Positions 13,013-25,483 of a stretch of DNA of 64,000 bases are shown here, one piece after another. The stretch is from Parcubacteria group bacterium (lineage in GTDB: Bacteria > Patescibacteriota > Microgenomatia > UBA1400 > PJMF01). The notes below the pieces were generated by a model. The model searched no databases, was not told the DNA's origin, and was given only the letters and a program-made list of their open reading frames with translations. How positions within the stretch are numbered: the first letter of the stretch is position 1; each line of letters starts with the position of its first letter. The position numbers and the translations under genes are program-made. The stretch is taken from positions 21,818-85,817 of the forward strand of contig CALQZX010000001.1 in NCBI GenBank assembly GCA_943350175.1. Direction: 5' to 3'.

Positions 13013-14492
<1,480 letters not shown>

Positions 14493-14895
14493 AAGTTTGA
14501 TTAGCTCTAAAAAACTTTTAACTACTCATTAAATCCGAAGATCTTTTTGATAAGCAAAAGCAAAATTTACTAAAAAATTGACGGACTTTTCCCTTGCGAG
14601 AAAAATCCTTGCACACTTTCTATCACTATAATTATTTCCAATTGACTGTTTACTTTTTAAAGATCTTTTGACTCAACTTAGTTTGGCCGCAAACAAAAAA
14701 AAGGAGAGAAAAACTTGTTAGCTTTCCTTTTTTATCTAAGCGCTGAGTAATTTTATTCTTAGTCAGAACAAAATCGTTGAGTGGGAGTTATTCTAAGGGC
14801 AAGTTTATGAAAAGACAATAGTCAATCTAGGGCAATTTACAGATTGCTTTGCAAGCAGTTATTCTTATTTTGCTGCAACTCTATTATACTTTTGT

Positions 14896-15621
14896 TTGAG
14901 ACCTATGCCTGCCATTAAACATGCAGTTCTATTGACGATGAGTGTTCTTGGAGCGTACTTGTATCTGCAAGTGCCTTTTTTGAGATACTACTCTCTGCAG
15001 GTTTTTGCCCTGATTAGCATTTTTTATTTAATATTACAAAAAAAACAAAGAGGCAGTGTTCATTTGATTCTTCCTGAAAACTCTTCTGCCAATCTGGCTT
15101 TGATTAATTTTGCCTTTTTACTATTAACTGGTTCCAGCGGCTCGCTTGCCTCACCTTTTTTTGCCATCACTTTTATCGAGCTTTTTTTCTTGGCTTTGGC
15201 TGCTCCCACTAAGACTTCTCTATTAGTTGCTTTGGAAATTATGGTTTTTCATTTTAGTTTAAGTATTGCCGTGAGTAGTAATTTTGCTTTATCTACTGCT
15301 GAATTATCTAATTTATTGGCTTTACCACTAGTAATGATCTTTTATCTTTTTGCCAAAGACCAATATCAGAAGGCTTATCATAATTCCCTATTGATTGACG
15401 CTGAGGAGAGAGAATTGAATAGGGCTCAAAGTGATGATCAAGCAGTGGCAGAATTTATTTCTTCTCTCATTAACAGACGCTTGCCGATGCTGGAATTTTT
15501 ACTAAGTTTTCCAGACAAGAACAAGACAGCAATTGAAGGTGAAGTCAAAATTCTTAAAAGAGACTTGAGCACTTTGACTCGTCGTATTGATAAAAAAAAT
15601 CAAGAAGAAGATGAAATCTAA
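14896..15621 (+). CDS. Hypothetical polytopic membrane protein with C-terminal coiled-coil tail
   Basis: Six or so hydrophobic helices, then a charged C-terminus (AEERELNRAQSDD...EVKILKRDLSTLTRRIDKKNQEEDEI). Confidence 0.35.
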   Translation: MRPMPAIKHAVLLTMSVLGAYLYLQVPFLRYYSLQVFALISIFYLILQKKQRGSVHLILPENSSANLALINFAFLLLTGSSGSLASPFFAITFIELFFLALAAPTKTSLLVALEIMVFHFSLSIAVSSNFALSTAELSNLLALPLVMIFYLFAKDQYQKAYHNSLLIDAEERELNRAQSDDQAVAEFISSLINRRLPMLEFLLSFPDKNKTAIEGEVKILKRDLSTLTRRIDKKNQEEDEI

Positions 15622-16336
15622 AATTATATTTTTTCTATTTTTCTGCTTCATATTTTCTCCTCAAGTTTCGGCTGAAAATATGGAATCCAACTCCTATAAA
15701 ATTCAATTTGGAAATTTCAACATGTCTTCTGGTAAAAAAACCAGCGGAACTTATGCTCTATCCGATACCATGGGTGGCCTGGCAGTTGGGCCTTATGGTC
15801 AATATGGGAGCACTAATTATTTTATTGGTAGCGGTTTTCAATATGTTTACCAAATAGATTATTTCAATTTTAGTATTTCAAAACTCAATATTGAGCTGGG
15901 AGAGCTTTTTACAGGTAGTTTTGGAACAGACTCCCACACCATTTCCATCACAACAACAGGAGCTAGTGGCTATAACGTTTATGCCTTTGAGAATCATCCT
16001 CTAAAATTAAGCACCGGCACTGAAACTATTAATGACACCACTTGCGATTCTAATGACTGTGATGAAACCATCGCTGCTTCCTGGACAAATCCAGCGCAAG
16101 CTGGTTTTGGCTTTAATGTTAGTGGGACTGGAGCGGCCACTGATTTTATTAATGCTAATTATTTCCGTCAGTTTGCTAATAATGAAGCGAGTGAAAGTAT
16201 GCAGCAAATTATGGGTTCAGCCAATGTAGCTTTAAATAGTACGGCGACAGTTAATTACAAGGCCTCTATGCCAGGCAATCAAGCTAGTGGCAATTATCAA
16301 ACTAGCATCGTTTTTGTGGCGGTACCTGGGTATTAA
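15611..16336 (+). CDS. Small secreted protein (signal peptide), first gene of surface-protein cluster
   Basis: ORF track starts at 15587; the likely start is MKSKIIFFLFFCFIFSPQVSA at 15611. Gly/Ser/Asn/Tyr-rich beta-type sequence. Position and size are analogous to small WxL/CscB-like proteins, but no WxL motif was seen. Confidence 0.4.
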   Translation: MKSKIIFFLFFCFIFSPQVSAENMESNSYKIQFGNFNMSSGKKTSGTYALSDTMGGLAVGPYGQYGSTNYFIGSGFQYVYQIDYFNFSISKLNIELGELFTGSFGTDSHTISITTTGASGYNVYAFENHPLKLSTGTETINDTTCDSNDCDETIAASWTNPAQAGFGFNVSGTGAATDFINANYFRQFANNEASESMQQIMGSANVALNSTATVNYKASMPGNQASGNYQTSIVFVAVPGY

Positions 16337-16347
16337 AATAAATAATT

Positions 16348-17403
16348 ATGTTTTTAGAATTTTCAAATCAAGTCAAGCCTAGTAAATACCTTTTATTTGC
16401 TTTGTTTTTTTTGGCCATCAGCTCCAAGTTTGTCGCTGCCGCCTCAGCTCTTGATCTGAAAATTTATCCACCCACTGCCTATTTATCAGTTAAGCCTGGA
16501 GCCGGCATCAATCATCAAGTAAAATTGAAGAATGATGGTTTATACACATTGGAGATTACACCTGCCTTGGTAGACTTCCATAGTGACGACAAGTTTGGCC
16601 GAGTTGTTTTGGAGCAAAAAAGTGATTTCACTTCCCTAAATTTAGAGGGAGATAAGGATAACTGGGGCAAAAATTTTATTCTAAAGCCTGGTGAAGAAAG
16701 AATTCTTAATTTCGTTATTGCTCTGCCTTCTGATGCTAAATATGAAGAGCGCTATTTATCAATTTTATTTCAAGCCAAGCAGCTTTCTTTTGCCAGTGCC
16801 TCTTCAAAAGACACCTTGATCTCAGCTATTTTGGTCAGCAATGTGGTTGTTCTCATTGGTGGAGATGAGCAGAATCGAGGGGAACTCACAATTGAACAGT
16901 TCTATTTGCCAAAAATTGTGGACAGTTTTATCGGTTTTAGCTTTTCTGCTTTGGTTAAAAATATTGGCATTAACTCAACTCCGATCGATGGCTATATTAA
17001 AATTAGTCATTGGCCAGATCAGAACTCTGAGGTTTATGAGCTCTATCCAGATATGGTTTTGGCTGACAATACGAGATTAATCAGAGCAATGTCGGAAGAT
17101 GATCTTAAGACTCTTGAAAAGATGGAAGAAGGAAAGGGTGCTCAAATTGCTGCTGGGAATGATTATGCCAGTGTAAAAGAAAAGTTTATTAATGAAAAAT
17201 TGCGTTCTAAATTTTTTTATAAAAAGAGTTTTTTGATTGGTGCATACGATCTAGAATTGAAAGTTGGCGATGATGTTTTGCAAAAAAGAGTGATTGCTCT
17301 GCCTTTCTCTATTTTGTTAATCGTAATTCTTTTGCCGATCTTGTATTGGATTTTTGCAATGTTTGGCAGGTTTTTCAAAAAACTAGTTGACTTGAAGAGT
17401 TAA
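16348..17403 (+). CDS. Cell-surface protein, DUF916/DUF3324-like architecture (signal peptide ... C-terminal TM)
   Basis: Signal peptide; DLKIYPPTAYLSVKPGAGINHQVKLKNDGLYTLEI and FILKPGEERILNFVIALPSDAKYEERYLSILF resemble the DUF916 core pattern; C-terminal TM helix (LPFSILLIVILLPILYWIFAMF) plus basic tail. Confidence 0.4.
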   Translation: MFLEFSNQVKPSKYLLFALFFLAISSKFVAAASALDLKIYPPTAYLSVKPGAGINHQVKLKNDGLYTLEITPALVDFHSDDKFGRVVLEQKSDFTSLNLEGDKDNWGKNFILKPGEERILNFVIALPSDAKYEERYLSILFQAKQLSFASASSKDTLISAILVSNVVVLIGGDEQNRGELTIEQFYLPKIVDSFIGFSFSALVKNIGINSTPIDGYIKISHWPDQNSEVYELYPDMVLADNTRLIRAMSEDDLKTLEKMEEGKGAQIAAGNDYASVKEKFINEKLRSKFFYKKSFLIGAYDLELKVGDDVLQKRVIALPFSILLIVILLPILYWIFAMFGRFFKKLVDLKS

Positions 17404-18875
17404 TGAGGATTATTATTAAGACATATATGAATCTCAAAAAGTATTTCTTTGTCTTTTTTTTCCTTTTAGCTGGCTCTCTCGTAGCTAAAAAATATTTGAT
17501 TTCTGCTGGAGAATTTACAAGTACTTCTGCAACGCTCAATAATGCTCGTCTTTCTTTTCGAAGTGGGCTCCAGGGCACTCAGGTGACGGGTTCTTCTCTT
17601 GTGATAATCGATACCGCTAGCTATCCATCTGAATCAGTTTTGCAATTACAAAACCGCGACACGGTTTTGATTAATGATAGTGTTTACACCGTGGCAACAA
17701 CAATCGATGATGCCTCTGATGACACCTTCAATCTAACTACTGGCCTGGATGCTAGTGATGTAACCGATGATATGGGTATTTCTGCTAGTCAGTCTGCTTC
17801 GTTAACTGTCCGTCTAACCACGATTAGTGCTCTTACTGCTGGTTCGTTTCGTATCCTGGTTCCCGCTATTGGAGCCACAGCGGCTTCTCATGATGGTATT
17901 CCAGATTCTGGCGGTTTCGAGTTTGGAAATACAGATGGTACGCCAGCTTCTATTGCCTGTCCGGTGACCGCAAGTTATGGTACTTTTACCCCAACTTCCA
18001 CCAATGCTGAGTCTGCCTCCGTAACTATCGATGGAGTCAGCTATCACTCTTTTGTTTGTGCCTATAGCGGAGCGGGTGCCATTGGCACCCCATTTGATGG
18101 CAGTACGGAAGAAGCATTCATCATTTCAAATTTAATTAATCCATCGCCAAAAGTTGGCGCCTCCAATCACACCCTAGGCCAGGCTGACACTTATACTGTT
18201 ATTATTCAACAGAGAGATTCTTCTGATGCGATAATCGATCAAACAGTGACTAAAATTGGGGTAGTTGATGCGGTTAAGGTTTCTGCCTCCATTGCGCCAC
18301 AACTCACTTTTACTATTGCTGGGTTGGCTGCTAGTTCCACAGCTTGTGGAGTTTCCACTGATGTGACAACCACTGCTTTAACCGTGCCTTTTGGAGCTTT
18401 GACCATTGGCTCTTTTGTTGACGCTGCTCAAAGATTGACAGTGACAACCAATGCTATTGGTGGCTATTCAGTGACAGCAGCTGAAAATGATCAAGTAGGG
18501 CGCGAGGCGAATGCTTGTGCCACTGATGGATCTGCCAGCATTACTTGTATTATTGATAACAGTATGACTGGAGCTAGTCACACCACTTCAGCCGATTGGG
18601 TTGATGGGGCAACTTATCCTGGATTTGGTTACAGCTTGGATGCAGTTAGTGGAGGTCCTACTGTTGCCTTTTCTTTTGATGAGAGTAGTCGTGCTTTTTC
18701 AGCCAAGCAATTTGCTGATTTAGCGGCTGCAGAAGCTGTGCAAACCATTTTTACCAGAGCAACAGTGACGGCTAGTGACGTCGTAGATGTTTGCTATCGT
18801 ATCGCTCCAGCTGCCACCAACACTGCTGGAGATTATGAAAACTATCTGGTCTATACGGCCTCAGCTACTTTTTAG
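17403..18875 (+). CDS. Secreted Thr/Ser/Ala/Gly-rich beta-rich surface protein (possible WxL/CscC-like partner)
   Basis: Signal peptide, 490 aa, no TM anchor. Segments such as QLTFTIAGLAASS...LTVPFGALTIGSFVDAAQRLTVTTNAIGGYSVTAAEN resemble WxL-family N-terminal regions. Weak. Confidence 0.35.
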   Translation: MRIIIKTYMNLKKYFFVFFFLLAGSLVAKKYLISAGEFTSTSATLNNARLSFRSGLQGTQVTGSSLVIIDTASYPSESVLQLQNRDTVLINDSVYTVATTIDDASDDTFNLTTGLDASDVTDDMGISASQSASLTVRLTTISALTAGSFRILVPAIGATAASHDGIPDSGGFEFGNTDGTPASIACPVTASYGTFTPTSTNAESASVTIDGVSYHSFVCAYSGAGAIGTPFDGSTEEAFIISNLINPSPKVGASNHTLGQADTYTVIIQQRDSSDAIIDQTVTKIGVVDAVKVSASIAPQLTFTIAGLAASSTACGVSTDVTTTALTVPFGALTIGSFVDAAQRLTVTTNAIGGYSVTAAENDQVGREANACATDGSASITCIIDNSMTGASHTTSADWVDGATYPGFGYSLDAVSGGPTVAFSFDESSRAFSAKQFADLAAAEAVQTIFTRATVTASDVVDVCYRIAPAATNTAGDYENYLVYTASATF

Positions 18876-18886
18876 GTACAAAAAAT

Positions 18887-19924
18887 ATGATTAAAAACTG
18901 CCCAACCAAAAACAACAATCCAACCAAAAAAAGTAATTATTTATTTTTTATTCTTTTTTTCGCAATATCTTTTTTAAATAAGACTTTTGCCGCTGATACC
19001 ATGTCGCTCACTGCAACTCCAGTGCGCTTGGGAGATGATTTCAGCATTAGTCTTTCTCCTGGTGAAAAAAAACAAGTTCAAGTTAAAGTTCGCAATGGTT
19101 CTAGTGACACCGTGGTTTTGGAGAGTGCAGCTCTAGATTTTGTCGTGGCGAGTGATGGAGCTACTCCAGTAGTGGTTGATAAGTTGCAAGCTGACAACCG
19201 TTGGAGCTTGGCCTCTTGGTTAACTTTGGCTCCAGCAGAACATAAGTTGGCAAGTGAAGAAATCGCTGTCGTAAATGTTTTAATAGAGGTGCCAAAAGAT
19301 GCTTTGCCAGGTGGGCACTACGCAATGATTTTTCACAGACCGGTCAATTCGGCTTCTGAAGATGGTTCTGGCTCAGGAATTTCTCAGCGCGTGGGCACTT
19401 TACTTTACGTGATGGTTAAGGGAAATGTCATTGAAGAAGCTGCGATCAGCTCTTTTAATTGGCCTAAATTTCTTGAAAATGGTCCAGTCGATTTTTCTCT
19501 AAATATTGACAATCAATCGGACATTCACATTAATACGAAGCCTGTTCTCAAGGTTTACAACATCTTTGGCAAAGAAGTTGTAAATATCGAGACAGAAGCA
19601 AAAAATATTTTTCCAAAGAGTGAAAGAGCTTTTTCTGGAACCTGGAATAAAGTTTGGGGACTTGGTTATTACAAAGCTATAGTTGAAGCAACCTACGGCA
19701 ATCAGGGCAAAGTCATGACAGCTCAAGCAGGCATGTTCTTAATACCAGTCAAAATGATTTTATTAGTCCTAATCATTATCTTAATCAGCACTATTTTGTT
19801 TCTTTCGCTCAAAAAGCGTAAAGAGTCTGGGTTATTAGCTTCTACTTCTAATTCTGACTCAGATTTAGAAAAAAATCCTGAAACAAATAATGAAGAATCT
19901 GATCATCCAGAAAAAAACAATTAA
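18887..19924 (+). CDS. Cell-surface protein, DUF916/DUF3324-like (CscA-like) with C-terminal membrane anchor
   Basis: Signal peptide; SLSPGEKKQVQVKVRNGSSDTVVL and IEVPKDALPGGHYAMIFH match my memory of the DUF916 consensus (kPGqkqtlkvkv.N...; ...P..afdG...G..f); distal half fits DUF3324-like pattern; C-terminal TM MILLVLIIILISTILFLSL followed by KKRKESG charged tail. Confidence 0.45.
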   Translation: MIKNCPTKNNNPTKKSNYLFFILFFAISFLNKTFAADTMSLTATPVRLGDDFSISLSPGEKKQVQVKVRNGSSDTVVLESAALDFVVASDGATPVVVDKLQADNRWSLASWLTLAPAEHKLASEEIAVVNVLIEVPKDALPGGHYAMIFHRPVNSASEDGSGSGISQRVGTLLYVMVKGNVIEEAAISSFNWPKFLENGPVDFSLNIDNQSDIHINTKPVLKVYNIFGKEVVNIETEAKNIFPKSERAFSGTWNKVWGLGYYKAIVEATYGNQGKVMTAQAGMFLIPVKMILLVLIIILISTILFLSLKKRKESGLLASTSNSDSDLEKNPETNNEESDHPEKNN

Positions 19925-21929
19925 GTTCTTTTTAGTTTTTTTCTTTATATTTTTTACCTTTGCTTTTAACCAGCGATCTGCTTTTGCTGCTGACGTTAGC
20001 GTAAGTGCTACTGTTCCAGATTCAGTTCCTCCTTCAGTGCCAATTCTTATTGAACCTGCTGATGAATCTTCATTAGCGGACAACACCCCAACCTTTAGGT
20101 GGTATGAAGCGACTGACAATCTAGCTCTTTCAAATTATGTTTTTTATTTGAATGAGGCTGTTCTGTACGCTGGAATTCCTCTGATAAACACTGACAACAG
20201 CTATTACACTCTTGAGTATGACAGTTTAAATGGAATTTATTCTTTGACTCCCAAAGCCATTCTTGTTGATGCTTCCTATTCTTGGAAAATAGCCGCAGTT
20301 GACTATGCCAATCTAAGCTCCTCTTCAGACATTTGGAATTTTAGAATTGATACTTTGACGCCTAGCTTTGTGCTCAAAAAAATAGGTGACATTGATGTAA
20401 ATATATCTGCTGCTGATGTTGGGAGCGTTTCAACAAGTCCGATTATTATTTTTGGAAGTGATGCTACAGCGAATGAGCCAACTTTAGTGGCTCTTGGAGA
20501 AGCTAATAGTAGCGTTAAATTAACAGTAACTATTCCCGATGATCTGTCGCAAACTTTTACAACATCCATTGATGGCAATGGCAATTATTCTCTGAAACTA
20601 GGAATTCTTCCCAGAGACACTGACATCAGATTGGATTTTATCATTACTGATGGAGTTGGTCATGTTAGCGTCTTGGAAAAAGTATACATTCGCATTGCGC
20701 TCCAATATTGGCCGACAGCCACTTCCACAATTACTTTGACGCCTACCAGCATCTTGAGTCCATCTGTTAGCTCATCGCCGATTTTAACTAAGACTATTTC
20801 TCCGAGTTTAACGACCAAGCCAAGTCTAACTTCAACGCTTTCTCCCACTTTTACTCCTACAGCAACTCCCACATCAACTGGAATTATTCCCATCATTCCT
20901 CCAAGAGAAATTATTCATGAGGTAGGCGATGAATTAGTTGAAGCGATGCCTGAGGCAACAGCGAGCTATATTAGAGATTTTTTATCTTCTAAATTATGGC
21001 AGAATTTATCTTTGTTGTTTGCTCTTTTGCTAATCATTGCTTTTTATTTGTTGTCATTTTTGATTTTACTTAGTAAGTTTTTTTACATGATTTCTTGGCC
21101 GTTGATAAAAAAAATCGCAATTTTATTGTTTCCGTCCTTTTCTAAAGCTAGTAAAAATTTAGTTTTTGAATATAGAGATACTCTGGCTAGTCCTTTGACC
21201 AAAGTTGTCTTGTTGGGACAGGATGATCAGGTTATAGATTTTGCGATTACCAATTTGAATGGTAATTTTGACGATCTCTCCTACCCAGTTGATAAAAAAT
21301 GGAGATTGAAAGTTGAAGATGACAACTTCTATTATCCAATTGGTGATGAAAAACCAAGTCAACTAGAGTACTGGCAATTTTATCAGAACCAGTTGATTGG
21401 CGACGACTATTATGGTCAGGCTATCTTGATTCCGACTCTGAGAGCTGCTGGTCAGGATAAATTGCCATTTTTCGAACGCCTACGCATTTCTGTTCTCTAT
21501 TTGCTAGATTATCCTTTTTGGTTTTTGCTTATTTTTTGGCTATTTTCCTTAATTTTTGCCTTAAGATACCCAAGTATTTACAATGACATTGCTCTAATAT
21601 TTCATTCTTTCATGTTACTGTTTAAAATTTATCTTTTTCTTAAAAAGAAACTAAAATTAGTCTTAGTTGCTAATTTATTAGATGGACAGCAATTGTCCGA
21701 AAACTTAGTATTGTCTTTTTTTGATCAAGATAGTCAGCTGTCTCGTTCTATGGTCATTCCTTTTGATTTTTCAAAATCCAAGCAAATAGAACATTCTTTC
21801 AAAAAAATTACTCTCACCGCTTTCTCTAAAAATTTTGCTTTAGAAAAGGACAATCTTGTTGTCGGAAGTCAAGAAATTGTTCTCAATGAAAAAGAAGAAG
21901 TTCCTATACAAATAAAAAGAGCTTTGTAA
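19890..21929 (+). CDS. Large surface/membrane protein with Ig/FN3-like ectodomains and Thr/Pro/Ser-rich linker
   Basis: Signal peptide; PTFRWYEATD...YSWKIAAVD FN3-like strand pattern; TPTSILSPSVSSSPILTKTISPSLTTKPSLTSTLSPTFTPTATPTSTG linker; several TM helices in the C-terminal 300 aa. Confidence 0.4.
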   Translation: MKNLIIQKKTIKFFLVFFFIFFTFAFNQRSAFAADVSVSATVPDSVPPSVPILIEPADESSLADNTPTFRWYEATDNLALSNYVFYLNEAVLYAGIPLINTDNSYYTLEYDSLNGIYSLTPKAILVDASYSWKIAAVDYANLSSSSDIWNFRIDTLTPSFVLKKIGDIDVNISAADVGSVSTSPIIIFGSDATANEPTLVALGEANSSVKLTVTIPDDLSQTFTTSIDGNGNYSLKLGILPRDTDIRLDFIITDGVGHVSVLEKVYIRIALQYWPTATSTITLTPTSILSPSVSSSPILTKTISPSLTTKPSLTSTLSPTFTPTATPTSTGIIPIIPPREIIHEVGDELVEAMPEATASYIRDFLSSKLWQNLSLLFALLLIIAFYLLSFLILLSKFFYMISWPLIKKIAILLFPSFSKASKNLVFEYRDTLASPLTKVVLLGQDDQVIDFAITNLNGNFDDLSYPVDKKWRLKVEDDNFYYPIGDEKPSQLEYWQFYQNQLIGDDYYGQAILIPTLRAAGQDKLPFFERLRISVLYLLDYPFWFLLIFWLFSLIFALRYPSIYNDIALIFHSFMLLFKIYLFLKKKLKLVLVANLLDGQQLSENLVLSFFDQDSQLSRSMVIPFDFSKSKQIEHSFKKITLTAFSKNFALEKDNLVVGSQEIVLNEKEEVPIQIKRAL

Positions 21930-21968: not shown

Positions 21969-23222
21969 ATGAGTTTCCACTTTCTCACGATTGGTTTTTC
22001 TACAAAAAAAATGCATGTGCAGGCAGCCTTAAACGCAGGGTTTAAGGTTAGCTTGCTCACCACCTTCGATAAGTACGAAGATGAATTTAAAAATATTTTT
22101 CATAAAGTTTTGTTAGTTGAAAATATTTACAATTGGCAGCAAATAAAAGATGTTATCGATAAAACAGAAAAAATTGATGCTGTCGTAACAAGATATGAGG
22201 GTTATGTCAGTGTTATGGGGGCCATTAATCAATACCTGGGATTAAATGGCATTAATTATCAGACTGCTAGAAATTTTTGCAATAAATATTCAATGAAACA
22301 AAAGTGGTTGAAATCCGGAGTTCCTTGCGCGGACGGCGTTTGTCTGGACAATCTAGACAAACTTGATTCATTTTTAGAAAAACATTCTTTTCCAATGATT
22401 CTGAAAAAAACCTCAGCAGTTCATTCAAATTTTGTGATAAAAGTTGATTCAAAAAAAGATTTGTTTGAAAAATTAGAATTTTTTAAAACTCAGGTTAATG
22501 GTTATGTCGTTTCCAGGCCTGTTGACGGATATGGTGATAAGCTAAATGAATGCCATTTTTTACTAGAAGAAATGCTTAAAGGAAGAGAATTAACAGTTGA
22601 CACCTTTGTTTTAGATTCAAAATTCGTTCACACTCCAATTTGTGAGTACGTGTTGGCTCATGATTTAGGAATAAATGATTCATATTTGCCAATTAGAACA
22701 ATGCCAATTTCTCTAGATTCCGATCAAGAAAAGATGGTTATTGAAACGGTTGAAAAGGCTTTGGTTGCTCTCTCTGCCAAGAATTGCGTTTGTCACACGG
22801 AGTTGTTTTTTGATGAAAAAAATAATAGCTGCAGAATAATAGAGTCTACCCCCAGAAGTGGAGGAAATCGTGCTGAAATGACCAGGATGACAACGGAATA
22901 TGATTATAATCTGGCAGTCTTTAAAGCGGCTGCAAATCTAGATCTGCAGCCGCTTAAAAAACCAATCAAAGCTGTTTGCGTGGTTGAATATTTTGCTGAA
23001 AAAAGCGGGATGATTGATAAAATTGATTTAAAGTTTTTAAGTAAAAACAAAGCAGTAAGTTTGGTAAAGCTTAGGTATGGAGTTGGTGATTTAGTCAAGC
23101 AAGCCAAATTCGGTGGAAAAACAATTGCAAGCTTTTTTGTTGAGGCGGAAAATTCTTTTGAAAGTAAAAAAATCGCCATCGATTTATTTGAAAAAGTTAG
23201 GAAGTCAATTAAATTAAATTAA
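21969..23222 (+). CDS. ATP-grasp domain protein (carboxylate-amine/peptide ligase-like)
   Basis: pre-ATP-grasp Rossmann-like N-terminus, FPMILKKTSAVHSNFVIKVDSKKDL (ATP-binding lysine strand), GRELTVDTFV and HTELFF motifs typical of the ATP-grasp fold. Confidence 0.5.
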   Translation: MSFHFLTIGFSTKKMHVQAALNAGFKVSLLTTFDKYEDEFKNIFHKVLLVENIYNWQQIKDVIDKTEKIDAVVTRYEGYVSVMGAINQYLGLNGINYQTARNFCNKYSMKQKWLKSGVPCADGVCLDNLDKLDSFLEKHSFPMILKKTSAVHSNFVIKVDSKKDLFEKLEFFKTQVNGYVVSRPVDGYGDKLNECHFLLEEMLKGRELTVDTFVLDSKFVHTPICEYVLAHDLGINDSYLPIRTMPISLDSDQEKMVIETVEKALVALSAKNCVCHTELFFDEKNNSCRIIESTPRSGGNRAEMTRMTTEYDYNLAVFKAAANLDLQPLKKPIKAVCVVEYFAEKSGMIDKIDLKFLSKNKAVSLVKLRYGVGDLVKQAKFGGKTIASFFVEAENSFESKKIAIDLFEKVRKSIKLN

Positions 23223-24179
23223 ATTATTTCTAATGATTTCATTGACTGCTTTTTTATAACCACTTTGGTCTTCAGTAAAAACTTTGGGTAGAATTAAATT
23301 CTTGCTGATCCCAATTTTTTTAGCCTTATCGATGTCTTTCAAGTCTATTTTTCCATAATAAAGCTCGCTCGGATCATAATTGTTTTTTTTAAGATAGTTT
23401 AAGACTTCGACAAAGCCCTCAAAATAAACCAAATCTTTAGTGAAAGCGCCTTTTTTGCTAGTGTCGCAAATACCCCTCTTTTTTTTAAGGGTCCAAGTCC
23501 AAGCTCTTTCTGGATCTTGCCAAGTTTCATAAAAAAAGTTGAAAACGGTGGCAAAATCTTTTTTGAGGGCTAAGTTGACAGCTAAATAATTAGCCGCTGA
23601 TTTGTAGGCCAGCTTATGCTCGCTAATGATTAGTTCATTAATGGCAGCAAGACCCTCGTCTGTGCGCAGATATGGTCCAAAATCGTTCTCTTTTTTCTTT
23701 TTAAACCAAGACTGTGTTTCATAGTTTAGATGTCTAACAATGTGAGTATCAATCTCGTGATTAAGAATGGCTTCTATTTCACTTTTATCAATTGCCACTG
23801 GAAGTCGAACTTTTATAATTTTTTCGTTGTTGTTGACAGCAATACGACTGATAAAATTACTAGAAAAAACAATTCCATAATCGTTCTCCAAATTATAATA
23901 TTTTAATCTTTTTTCAATTAAGCTTTTAATCTCGTCTTGATTTAGAAAAACTTTACTTCTTTGGATTTGCTCTACCAGATTTTTTTCTTTTAGGTGTTTT
24001 TTCAGAATTCTCTTGGCTAGAAATAAATACCAAAATTTTGGCTTGCCGTGTTTACCGAGTTCGCTTTGTGGAGTATTTTTTTTGTAAATAAACTGCGGAT
24101 TGTATTTGAATGAGGAGGCAAAAAATTTTTCTTTTTCACTTTCCAAATTAAGGGGAATTAGGTCGCTTAGTTTAAGCAT
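23214..24179 (-). CDS. DUF1704 / QEGLA-motif protein (MATCAP-like metallocarboxypeptidase fold)
   Basis: TDEGLAAINE matches the QEGLA signature. HEIDTH matches the atypical HExxxH zinc motif of DUF1704/MATCAP tyrosine carboxypeptidases. In other genomes, members of this family sit next to RimK-like ligases. Confidence 0.55.
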   Translation of the reverse strand: MLKLSDLIPLNLESEKEKFFASSFKYNPQFIYKKNTPQSELGKHGKPKFWYLFLAKRILKKHLKEKNLVEQIQRSKVFLNQDEIKSLIEKRLKYYNLENDYGIVFSSNFISRIAVNNNEKIIKVRLPVAIDKSEIEAILNHEIDTHIVRHLNYETQSWFKKKKENDFGPYLRTDEGLAAINELIISEHKLAYKSAANYLAVNLALKKDFATVFNFFYETWQDPERAWTWTLKKKRGICDTSKKGAFTKDLVYFEGFVEVLNYLKKNNYDPSELYYGKIDLKDIDKAKKIGISKNLILPKVFTEDQSGYKKAVNEIIRNNLI

Positions 24180-24196
24180 AAAAACTTTCTGATCTT

Positions 24197-25483
24197 TTAT
24201 TCATCAAATCTAATGATGAAATTTTTAAGATCTTTGCGGCCAATTTCTATTTTATTTTGTTTGCTATTTAGTTTATTGCTGACGATCATGGTGGTTTTGA
24301 CAACTTGATCTTTAATTTTAAATTTGACCTCTACTACTGGCACTTTACCTTCTTCTTGCTCTGATTGGAACCAAAGCAGATCGTCGACATCAATTAAGCC
24401 AAGTTCTTGAGCTAATTTTTTGGAAATGGCACTGCTGAAGCGACCGGTATTTAAAAAGGCGCTGGTTTCAATTTTTTGCTTATGATCTCCCCAGACAATG
24501 ATGTCTTCGTAAAGTGAAACAACTGGAAATTCTGCCTTGTTTTTGATTTTGGCTGCAAAATCACTGGCAAAAAGAGCCTGAGCTACTTTGACGCCATGTT
24601 TGGGACCTTGAATGTTGAGATCCTCCACTCGTTCTAGTCTTCTGCGAAGTCCGGCGCGATTTGCAGCCTGTATGGAAAGTCCTGGAGCAGCATTGATTTC
24701 CACCACCATTGGACCCTTGTCTTTGTGAATAAAAAGATCGATGCCAGTGAATTGTAATCCGGCGACATTACTGGCTATAACTGCTGTTTCTAGAAGCTTC
24801 TCCCATTCAGGGATGATGATGCCATTGAGCTTTTTCTTGGTTCCTGGAAGATATCGAATTGGTTCGCTTTTATGAGCCAGAGCGAAGGTGGTAATGCCTG
24901 TGGCCAAATCAATGCCGACTGCCAAAGCTCCTTGAGCCAAATTGGCACGACCGCCAGATTCTTCCGTTGGCAAGCGCAGCATAGCCATAACAGGAACACT
25001 GTTGAAAACAATCACTCTAATGTCTGGAGTGCCTTTGTAAGAATACTTTAATAATTTTGGATGAATCGGAATTCTTTCCTCAATAATGACGTTGTGATTG
25101 GTGCCGTGGATGCTGTACTGTCCAGAAAGAATGTCACTGCAATGTAATTTGATGTCGTCTAGACCCCATTTGTTGCCAAGCATGTCTGTCCAGGAATCTT
25201 CTGAGGTTTTGCTTCGAAACGGAATAACTCCAGTTCCAGCATAACCATTAGTTGGTTTAATCACGAAATCTTTTTCCAAGTTTTGCCAGTCAAAATCAGC
25301 GATGTCTTCTTCGGTGGCAAGAATGCCGTAAATCTCTGCTGTAGCGATGTTGTTGTCACGCAAGAGGATTTTTGTGGCGTATTTGGAATGAACAATTGCC
25401 TTGGATTTATTTGAACTACGGCTCAAATAAATTGCATTGCGAGCATTGATTCCCAAAAGATCTTTGGCTTTGTGAATAAACAT
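24197..25483 (-). CDS. Alpha-L-glutamate ligase-related (RimK-like ATP-grasp) protein with C-terminal extension
   Basis: LLGINARNAIYL, KYATKILLRDNNIATAEIYG and DFVIKPTNGYAGTGV align with my recollection of the rimK_rel_E_lig consensus. About 120 extra C-terminal residues could be a degenerate retropepsin-like (DUF785-type) domain with NTG in place of DTG. Confidence 0.6.
   Translation of the reverse strand: MFIHKAKDLLGINARNAIYLSRSSNKSKAIVHSKYATKILLRDNNIATAEIYGILATEEDIADFDWQNLEKDFVIKPTNGYAGTGVIPFRSKTSEDSWTDMLGNKWGLDDIKLHCSDILSGQYSIHGTNHNVIIEERIPIHPKLLKYSYKGTPDIRVIVFNSVPVMAMLRLPTEESGGRANLAQGALAVGIDLATGITTFALAHKSEPIRYLPGTKKKLNGIIIPEWEKLLETAVIASNVAGLQFTGIDLFIHKDKGPMVVEINAAPGLSIQAANRAGLRRRLERVEDLNIQGPKHGVKVAQALFASDFAAKIKNKAEFPVVSLYEDIIVWGDHKQKIETSAFLNTGRFSSAISKKLAQELGLIDVDDLLWFQSEQEEGKVPVVEVKFKIKDQVVKTTMIVSNKLNSKQNKIEIGRKDLKNFIIRFDE

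Follow-up and report, generated by a model that had tools for sequence, protein, structure and literature searches.

A predicted compact Pam-type pilus operon in a Microgenomatia-like CPR bacterium, with chaperone candidates related to the WxLIP proteins of Firmicutes

Pam pili are a recent discovery, made in 2026 in a single Saccharimonadia parasite grown in culture (bioRxiv 10.64898/2026.03.03.709456). In Candidatus Mycosynbacter amalyticus the system comprises the pilins PamA, PamB and PamE, the tip subunit PamT, the chaperones PamC and PamD and the anchor PamR. The pilins are composed of an N-terminal domain (NTD), a linker that provides a donor strand and a C-terminal domain (CTD) with a truncated Ig fold, and PamT carries the CTD only. 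Cryo-EM showed that proteins with this C-domain form filaments in M. amalyticus, and cysteine pairs were reported in PamA and PamB. PamC and PamD are FimC/PapD-like with a C-terminal TM helix, their chaperone function being a prediction in this reference organism too. PamR combines Ig/FnIII domains with an N-terminal strand and is held in the membrane by a TM anchor. The system operates without an usher, and homologues were reported in Saccharimonadia and Microgenomatia (bioRxiv 10.64898/2026.03.03.709456).

The WxL or Csc clusters of Lactobacillales, Listeria and Bacillus constitute the second system of reference. CscA is the WxLIP (DUF916-DUF3324-TM), CscB and CscC are WxL proteins and CscD is a small LPXTG protein. 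The definition of a WxL cluster requires at least two WxL-domain proteins (PMC10599100). In Firmicutes, WxLIP has been interpreted as a lasting partner at the cell surface, not as a chaperone that binds transiently.

The locus studied here lies in a window of 64,000 nucleotides, which is the whole stretch of DNA that was analysed. The list of open reading frames agrees with the coordinates first given for five consecutive plus-strand genes (g1 to g5), and each product starts with a hydrophobic, signal-peptide-like segment, as an earlier note on this DNA had claimed. These five genes stand, but the unit is larger: the gene upstream of g1 (up) overlaps it and is co-conserved, so we extended the cluster to six genes, positions 14896-21929 of the plus strand (Table 1). 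The junctions between the cluster genes are tight, with overlaps or gaps of 11 nt, which is consistent with a single operon. Of the 59 related CPR loci that have enough flanking sequence, 54 carry the complete set of six genes in the same order, and 55 do so once the g2 homologue of locus L019, found by HMM, is counted; the other neighbour counts given below refer to 80 loci. The co-conservation that the earlier note had proposed to look for is therefore present, and the cluster is not a chance arrangement. The loci with a named CPR lineage belong to Pacebacteria, Microgenomates, Woesebacteria, Paceibacterota or Patescibacteria. The cluster is thus widespread and syntenic in CPR bacteria, contrary to the expectation that a csc/WxL-type complex would be unusual in such a genome. 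A promoter/terminator scan was uninformative: terminator-like sites were at background level, none of them after g5, and 29 promoter-like sites were counted for 20.8±3.7 expected.

Table 1. Positions in the window of the cluster genes and of the two occurrences of the linker motif.
Feature	Position	Strand	Assignment
up	14896..15621	+	conserved polytopic membrane protein; first gene of the operon
g1	15611..16336 (ORF 15587-16336)	+	PamT-like tip subunit candidate; NF058581/NF058579 matches
g2	16348..17403	+	membrane-anchored two-domain chaperone-like protein, WxLIP/CscA-like, PamC/D-like
g3	17403..18875	+	major pilin candidate, PamA-like; AF2 model and family NF058581 matches
g3 linker, putative donor strand	18270..18299	+	A-V-[KR]-V-[ST]-A-[TS]-[VI]-x-P, residues 290-299
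g4	18887..19924	+	membrane-anchored two-domain chaperone-like protein, WxLIP/CscA-like, PamC/D-like
g5	19890..21929	+	candidate terminator and membrane anchor; layout similar to that of PamR
g5 mature N-terminus	19995..20021	+	V-[ST]-V-[ST]-A-[TS]-[VM]-P-D, residues 36-44

The families of g2 and g4 are paralogous (hhalign 99.5%, E 2e-22, 264 columns including the TM segment). A hydrophobicity scan placed a signal peptide, a C-terminal TM segment (309-344) and then a basic tail in g2, and a single C-terminal TM segment followed by basic residues in g4. In the AF2 model of g4 (pLDDT 80.7), a signal helix precedes two beta-sandwich domains, and a long TM helix follows them. Scan and, for g4, model thus bear out the layout of signal, beta-rich ectodomain, C-terminal TM and basic tail first recognised by eye. 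The resemblance to DUF916/DUF3324 (CscA-like) proteins noted at the same time was also well founded. In Pfam it is carried by PF06030 (DUF916), which is matched by 33 of the 37 members of the g4 family (best E 1.8e-8) and, below the threshold of 27.3 bits, by the window g4 itself (E 0.0038, 17.7 bits). PF11797 (DUF3324) was matched by no member of the g4 or g2 family, whereas the profile alignment of the g4 family with WxLIP extends through both domains. Against a profile built for hhalign from nine genuine Firmicutes WxLIPs, the g4 family aligned over both domains (96.5%, E 9e-10, 235 columns, 26-279); for the g2 family the alignment covered the DUF916 domain (96.4%, E 1.2e-9). The motifs quoted in support of the first reading (PGEKKQVQVKVRNGS, PKDALPGGHYAMIF, YVMVKG and GYYKAIVEATYG) are all found in g4 and fall on the corresponding WxLIP positions in the profile-profile alignment.

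The structure comparison gave the same answer. The top Foldseek matches of the g4 model were the crystal structures of E. faecium WxLIP, 9i25_C and 9i1y (E 4e-13), the alignment with 9i25_C extending over 268 columns for a chain of 251 residues. RbmA followed, and then the chaperones CfaA, DraB, CsuC, Caf1M and FimC of chaperone-usher systems, at E values of 7e-10 to 7e-8. EfmWxLIP1 was also the sole informative match in sequence and profile searches of the PDB (g4 profile, E 0.06); those with g1, g3 and g5 returned nothing informative from a set that does not contain PamA or PamB. Judged by profile alignments and predicted fold, g4 and its paralogue g2 are true homologues of the Firmicutes DUF916/DUF3324 (WxLIP/CscA) proteins. 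A link in sequence between the Pam chaperone-like proteins and WxLIP was found neither in the Pam preprint nor elsewhere in the searchable literature, and is what the present analysis adds. The likeness of g2 and g4 to PamC and PamD is one of description, and an NCBIfam scan of the g4 and g5 families gave no match to a Pam chaperone or PamR model.

The putative subunits g1 and g3 share a C-terminal domain (hhalign 99.4%). For g1, the ATG at 15611 is a more likely start than 15587 and yields a protein beginning MKSKIIFFLFF..., which comprises a signal peptide, a conserved Gly/aromatic N-segment of ~65 aa and one pilin C-terminal domain. The model NF058581 (CPR_Pam_pilin_C) matches residues 93-241 of g1 (E 1.3e-4) and 27 of 29 members of its family, and NF058579 (CPR_pilus_PamT) matches 17 of the 29 (best E 4e-11). 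The g1 homologue of locus L022 aligns to positions 6-240 of the 241 in the PamT model, the length being similar (241 aa); the PamT scores of the family reach only 20-32 bits, against an equivalog cutoff of 240 bits. The third gene encodes a signal peptide, a large beta-sandwich N-domain (~39-288), a linker (289-300) and a C-terminal pilin domain (301-490). In its AF2 monomer model (pLDDT 87.6) two beta domains are separated by the linker, which is unstructured and of lower confidence. NF058581 is matched by 11 of 38 members of the g3 family (best E 6.9e-7), and the window g3 itself gives no Pam model match at E<=1. The NF058581 alignments of both families run end to end (5-148 of 148) at 20-29 bits, below the 55-bit cutoff though with E values down to 1e-8. 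As far as profile matches can tell, the relation of g1 and g3 to the CPR Pam pilin models is therefore one of remote homology, below the curated threshold. Fold matches of g3 were weak and fell on donor-strand pilins and fibres (CfaB, CfaE, Saf and TasA), in a PDB set without PamA and PamB. The g3 family numbers 1,377 representative clusters at E<=1e-3, and six cysteines (C186, C219, C315, C372, C382 and C464) are invariant in it, comparable to the Cys pairs of PamA and PamB. The two proteins end in ...VAVPGY (g1) and ...TASATF (g3), without TM segment or LPXTG.

These two proteins, of 249 and 490 aa, had been suggested to occupy the places of the small and large WxL partners. The small/large layout and the common CTD agree with this, but their identity as WxL proteins was rejected. 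Pfam WxL matched neither the window proteins at E<=1 nor any of the 29 g1-family members. The dual W-x-L motif occurred in 0/29 sequences of the g1 family and 0/38 of the g3 family, compared with 10/14 of a control WxL set. A profile of 14 genuine WxL domains from annotated plasmids gave hhalign probabilities of 0.3-0.5%; at values below 1%, the by-eye likeness of 'GY.V' and 'Y...VY.A..P' to WxL motifs is not supported.

The linker of g3 is more conserved (0.73) than the two domains that flank it (0.64-0.66), and A290, V291 and A295 are invariant across the 38 sequences of the family. A similar motif directly follows an AFA signal-peptidase-like site in g5, at what would be the mature N-terminus; V38 is conserved in 25 of 30 family members, A40 in 26 and D44 in all 30. 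The common core V[ST]A[ST][VIM] occurs at these two places only among the six-frame ORFs of the window (31,651 aa), and a motif scan did not find the linker donor motif in g1. That g3 and the g5 N-terminus have this conserved motif in common suggests that a strand of one subunit is inserted in trans into another. Behind its donor-like strand, g5 carries two Big_13 Ig domains, a T/P-rich stalk, TM segments (~367-406, 533-561 and 566-585 in the hydrophobicity scan) and CarboxypepD_reg-like domains. All 30 family members contain Big_13 (best 4e-21) and 23 of the 30 also CarboxypepD_reg, and g5 lies directly 3' of g4 in 75 of 80 loci.

We propose, with a probability of roughly 70%, that positions 14896-21929 are a compact Pam-type pilus operon of a Microgenomatia or 'Pacebacteria'-like CPR bacterium and encode a thin surface filament. 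Sec would export all the ectodomain proteins, and g2 and g4 would be retained in the cytoplasmic membrane by their C-terminal helix. Their two Ig-like domains, folded like PapD/FimC and WxLIP, would cover the incomplete C-terminal domain of subunits that have just been exported. The PamT-like g1, which has an acceptor domain only, would start the filament and stand at its tip. The shaft would grow by addition of g3 copies through donor-strand exchange without an usher, the linker strand of each entering the C-terminal domain of the preceding subunit. Growth would stop, and the filament would be fixed to the membrane, when the linker-like mature N-terminal strand of g5 enters the last g3 subunit. 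Next to these five, the operon has the conserved upstream membrane protein as its sixth component.

This anatomy shares with the Pam pilus a CPR host, Sec-exported parts, paired cysteines, the lack of an usher and, to judge by sub-threshold matches of the g1 and g3 families to the NCBIfam Pam models, a C-terminal pilin domain. It also shares a two-domain pilin with an inter-domain linker (g3), a paralogous pair of predicted PapD-like chaperones, each ending in a TM helix (g2 and g4), and probably a single-CTD tip subunit (g1) and, in layout, an Ig-domain membrane protein with an N-terminal strand (g5). The differences are also clear. Sequence similarity is remote (20-32 bits, under the NCBIfam cutoffs for pilin_C and PamT), there is one major pilin instead of PamA, PamB and PamE, and a conserved polytopic membrane protein is added upstream. 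The likeness of g5 to PamR is one of layout and description: g5 is a multi-TM protein of 679 aa with Big_13 domains and extra CarboxypepD_reg domains, whereas PamR is smaller, RbmA-like and has a single TM. No ATP synthase genes were noted adjoining the cluster, the annotation here covering the cluster only. Read as a Pam system, this locus is a minimal Microgenomatia version of six genes, in which g1 to g5 keep a simple and strict order of subunit, chaperone, subunit, chaperone and anchor.

The same proteins might instead form a non-filamentous surface complex of the Csc/WxL kind, in which g2 and g4 are permanent anchors that hold g1 and g3 by beta-strand complementation without polymerisation. 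We consider this unlikely. That mode was proposed for WxLIP and WxL proteins, the crystal structure 9i25 has a WxLIP in complex with a long WxL protein, and the homology of g2 and g4 to WxLIP/CscA is seen in sequence, fold and layout. Each partner gene is followed by its anchor gene (g1 by g2, g3 by g4), isolated g3-g4 pairs exist in some genomes (L044, L058), and the small and large partners parallel CscB and CscC in a cluster that encodes secreted or anchored proteins only. On the other side, WxL domains and motifs are missing from g1 and g3, whose client domain remotely matches the Pam pilin C-domain that forms filaments in M. amalyticus, and the six proteins contain no LPXTG-type C-terminal signal and the operon no extra small ORF that could be CscD. 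Two WxLIP-like genes are present per cluster instead of one, next to an Ig-domain multi-TM protein and a polytopic membrane protein that the Csc clusters do not have. The return of the g3 linker motif at the g5 N-terminus favours insertion in trans.

Far less probable is a set of diverged secreted adhesins or Ig-domain surface proteins that act independently, without a common assembly mechanism, which had been the earlier note's fallback. Most proteins of the cluster lack an above-threshold family assignment and g5 has generic adhesin-type Ig domains; however, gene order is strictly kept in 54 of 59 loci despite a protein identity of only 25-50%, and the paralogous pairs, the common motif and the specific Pam and WxLIP homologies make such a description too weak for this Pam-type anatomy. 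Least probable of all is a pilus of the classical chaperone-usher type or one assembled by sortase as in Gram-positive bacteria. Chaperone-usher pili (Pap/Fim, CFA/I, Csu, Caf1) do have the two-Ig-domain chaperone fold, and the donor-strand complementation followed by exchange proposed here is theirs. Here, however, there is no outer membrane, a TM helix keeps the chaperone-like proteins in the cytoplasmic membrane, the subunits have two domains and the putative donor strand is an internal linker, not an N-terminal extension. The cluster contains no usher-like protein or Pfam usher match, and, outside the Ig and CarboxypepD_reg domains, the six proteins leave no unassigned stretch large enough for a beta-barrel. 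A sortase pilus is opposed by the lack of LPXTG in the six proteins and of TLxTC in the window ORFs of at least 100 aa.

A Pam-type pilus would yield simple and directly testable predictions for strand exchange and anchoring, through the linker motif repeated at the g5 N-terminus. The assignment of the chaperone-like proteins of a Pam-like cluster to the DUF916/WxLIP superfamily ties a presumed host-contact filament of CPR bacteria to the abundant and poorly understood WxL clusters of Firmicutes from gut and food. By extension, WxLIP itself may be a membrane-tethered chaperone. More speculatively, and on balance doubtful, CPR Pam pili and Firmicutes WxL/Csc clusters could both descend from a single ancient system of monoderm bacteria. 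At its centre would stand a PapD-like protein with two Ig domains and a membrane anchor (WxLIP/CscA, PamC/D-like), which supplies by strand complementation what the C-terminal domain of its clients lacks. Homology is established for the chaperone-like component only; between the WxL domain and the g1/g3 domain none was detected by sequence profiles. If the idea is true, the WxL domain would correspond to the Pam pilin C-domain but bind the cell wall, and a mechanism of the chaperone type would handle, and perhaps polymerise, the WxL proteins, the function of which has been unclear since 2006.

The product of the upstream gene has neither a Pfam domain nor named relatives, and a PDB search gave no significant relative, its match to KwaA being non-significant. 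It represents a small family whose matches are among CPR-type sequences only, and is found 5' of g1 in 60 of 80 loci. The hydrophobicity scan revealed 5-6 hydrophobic segments followed by a cytoplasmic helical tail, and the protein is possibly an assembly or regulatory factor.

All five plus-strand open reading frames that the earlier note had grouped as a cluster of secreted or anchored proteins (g1 to g5) were found, with identical coordinates. Each opens, as claimed, with a hydrophobic segment resembling a signal peptide, and g2 and g4 each carry the described C-terminal layout, a single strongly hydrophobic segment with basic residues behind it. The start of g1 is probably the ATG at 15611. 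In the public annotation of this contig, g1 is called from an internal Met (204 aa), at the cost of the signal peptide. Another open reading frame, up, lies directly 5' of g1, overlaps it and belongs to the same unit; its product has a polar helical tail besides its 5 or 6 hydrophobic segments. Since every junction from up to g5 is either an overlap or an 11-nt gap, the six genes form a single operon, which starts about 400 nt past a 16S rRNA gene.

Coordinates of the operon and its neighbours
Feature	Position	Strand	Remark
16S rRNA gene	13015-14493	-	complete, bacterial; directly upstream of the operon
Operon, up to g5	14896-21929	+	six genes
up	14896-15621	+	polytopic membrane protein
g1		+	249 aa, tip-like
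g1, N-terminal part	15611-15880	+	precedes the C-terminal domain
g2	16348-17403	+	chaperone-like, membrane-anchored
g3		+	490 aa, pilin-like
g4	18887-19924	+	chaperone-like, membrane-anchored
g5		+	putative anchor
ATP-grasp_4	21969-23222	+	Pfam match
MATCAP-family (PF08014) tyrosine-carboxypeptidase-like protein	23214-24179	-	E 1e-29
'Sugar-transfer associated' ATP-grasp	24197-25483	-	E 2e-60

The sequence patterns quoted in the earlier note as CscA-like (DUF916/DUF3324) are all located in g4, and this recognition proved correct, apart from a caveat on DUF3324. The g4 protein itself matches PF06030 (WxLIP_PGBD, DUF916) below threshold (E 0.0038), and 33 of 37 members of its family match it, with a best E of 1.8e-8. 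The AF2 model of g4 (pLDDT 80.7) runs from a signal helix through two beta-sandwich domains into a long TM helix. In Foldseek, it scores best against crystal structures of E. faecium WxLIP, 9i25_C ('bound to long WxL') and 9i1y (E 4e-13), followed by RbmA and then by the chaperone-usher chaperones CfaA, DraB, CsuC, Caf1M and FimC. Nine genuine WxLIPs from annotated plasmids of Enterococcus, Listeria, Lactococcus and lactobacillus were combined in a profile, which matched the g4 family across its two domains (96.5%, E 9e-10) and the g2 family across the first one (96.4%); g2 and g4 are paralogues over their full length (99.5%, E 2e-22). These PF06030, fold and profile matches identify the chaperone-like g2 and g4 as members of the WxLIP superfamily, with the caveat that PF11797 (DUF3324) was never matched in either family.

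The 249-aa and 490-aa proteins, g1 and g3, had been placed in the positions of the WxL partners by the earlier note, which saw no WxL motifs in them. They do share a C-terminal domain (g1 91-238 aligned with g3 325-487; 99.4%, E 8e-22), but this domain is not WxL. The Pfam WxL model matched neither window protein nor the g1 family, a control profile of 14 real WxL domains gave a probability below 1% for each family, and the dual W-x-L motif occurs in none of 67 g1- and g3-family members versus 10 of the 14 controls. Instead, the domain aligns end-to-end with the NCBIfam model NF058581 'CPR_Pam_pilin_C', in the g1 family for 27 of 29 members (best E 1e-8) and in the g3 family for 11 of 38 (best E 7e-7). 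NF058579 'CPR_pilus_PamT' is matched by 17 of the 29 g1-family members (best E 4e-11), one of which aligns over its full length (6-240 of 241). The scores for the two models reach only 20-32 bits, against cutoffs of 55 and 240. The g1/g3 domain appears to be a remote branch of the Pam pilins that automatic annotation leaves unnamed. In g1 this domain is preceded by a very conserved Gly/aromatic-rich segment of about 65 aa (S.SY.IQFGNFNM.SG...GPYG.YG...YF.GSGFQY.YQI), so that g1 is not a bare C-domain; the segment could serve for groove self-complementation or as a tip adhesin.

Cryo-EM structures have been reported for the PamA and PamB filaments of Ca. Mycosynbacter amalyticus, in which the pilins combine an N-domain and paired cysteines with a linker strand that goes to the truncated-Ig C-domain of the neighbour (bioRxiv 10.64898/2026.03.03.709456). 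From predicted structures, PamT was proposed as a tip subunit with a C-domain only, PamC and PamD (WP_260763277.1, WP_260763284.1) as FimC/PapD-like chaperones with a C-terminal helix in the membrane, and PamR (WP_260763282.1) as an RbmA-like, TM-anchored protein that fills the last pilin with its N-terminal strand; assembly is proposed to proceed without an usher. Homologues were reported in CPR only, chiefly Saccharimonadia and Microgenomatia, the latter at about 21% identity and detectable for the most part with language models. WxL, DUF916 and DUF3324 are not mentioned in that preprint (bioRxiv 10.64898/2026.03.03.709456).

In the AF2 model of g3 (pLDDT 87.6), a large N-domain and a C-domain, both of beta structure, are joined by a linker (289-300) that is unstructured and of lower confidence; six cysteines are invariant in the g3 family. 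Fold searches with g3 gave only weak matches, including donor-strand pilins or fibres and generic sandwiches, among structures that did not comprise PamA or PamB. The linker carries the motif A-V-[KR]-V-[ST]-A-[TS]-[VI]-x-P, of which 3 positions are invariant across 38 sequences. Directly past an AFA site, mature g5 begins with V-[ST]-V-[ST]-A-[TS]-[VM]-P-D, which is kept in 25-30 of 30 sequences. The core V[ST]A[ST][VIM] turns up once at each of these two places and nowhere else among the six-frame ORFs of at least 60 aa in the window (31,651 aa). Its absence from g1 agrees with what is expected of a tip subunit. Past its N-terminus, g5 has a pair of Big_13 Ig domains, present in 30 of 30 family members, together with a stalk rich in T and P, TM segments and CarboxypepD_reg-like domains. 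Such a build would be expected of a PamR-like terminator and anchor.

We conclude that the cluster is probably a remote homologue of the Pam pilus and would work like it. After export of the proteins by Sec, g1 and g3 would be capped by g2 and g4; g1 would start the filament, g3 would extend it as a polymer through exchange of its linker strand, and g5 would end growth and anchor the filament. The strongest alternative is a WxL-like complex that forms no filament, with g1 and g3 held permanently by g2 and g4. The WxLIP homology of g2 and g4 and the WxLIP-long WxL complex in 9i25 speak for it, whereas the Pam pilin homology of g1 and g3 and the motif common to the g3 linker and the g5 anchor argue against it. 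The evidence disfavours readings of the cluster as independent adhesins, as a classical chaperone-usher pilus or as a sortase pilus.

The WxLIP component is common to this cluster and WxL/Csc clusters, but the defining WxL proteins are absent, so it is not a WxL/Csc cluster. Compared with the M. amalyticus Pam operon, the cluster encodes only one predicted major pilin, its genes follow a strictly pairwise order, its putative anchor is larger and has several TM segments, and it contains one more membrane protein. Some CPR proteins, among them several g4 relatives ('DUF916 domain-containing protein'), already bear a DUF916 label in NCBI annotation; in the searchable literature, we found no paper tying DUF916/WxL to CPR bacteria or to donor-strand pili. 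The membership of the chaperone-like proteins in the WxLIP superfamily bears on both the origin of the Pam pilus and the function of WxL clusters.

The g4 family gave 568 matches, whose named relatives are Patescibacteria, Pacebacteria or Microgenomates. For g3, a word-indexed search gave 243 matches and an exhaustive one 1,377 representative clusters at E<=1e-3. Across 80 genome loci fetched with the g4 profile, many of them truncated, the gene order is up-g1-g2-g3-g4-g5, and tblastn detected g3 in 75, g5 in 75, g1 in 69, g2 in 66 and up in 60. Co-conservation is borne out by the 59 loci with enough flank, 54 of which hold the complete colinear six-gene set; among the five exceptions, one has a g2 found by HMM and two are isolated g3-g4 pairs. 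These pairs (L044 8372-10957 and L058 2067-4867) lack tip, anchor and up genes, and some genomes have two loci (L070/L075, L041/L077), which suggests satellite pilin cassettes. Loci L003, L022, L026 and L072 and many 'uncultured Pseudomonadales' records carry the cluster at 40-75% protein identity under the titles TM6 (CP011212.1), Methylococcaceae, Limisphaerales, Vitreimonas or Pseudomonadales; the records are most likely mislabelled or mis-binned rather than true occurrences beyond CPR.

The up protein, a conserved extra factor of the operon, contains no Cys or Trp and has invariant Q35, S86, F97 and Q156. Its family comprises about 90 clusters, CPR-derived by appearance throughout, with no Pfam domain and no detectable family; the best PDB match, Kiwa KwaA, is non-significant (E 0.02). 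In the control WxL clusters on Firmicutes plasmids (L082-L091), several 'hypothetical' neighbours occupy the places expected of WxL or LPXTG proteins (for example L082 5174-5782, L090 5279-5839 and L086 3412-5223), and in L091 a class A sortase lies directly 3' of the WxLIP gene. No 23S or 5S rRNA gene was detected across the 64-kb window that holds the 16S gene, so the rRNA genes are unlinked. The ATP-grasp/MATCAP module (21969-25483) adjoins the pilus cluster in 12-13 of the 80 loci; as this linkage is kept in close relatives only, the module lies outside the unit. It may be a peptide ligase/carboxypeptidase system.
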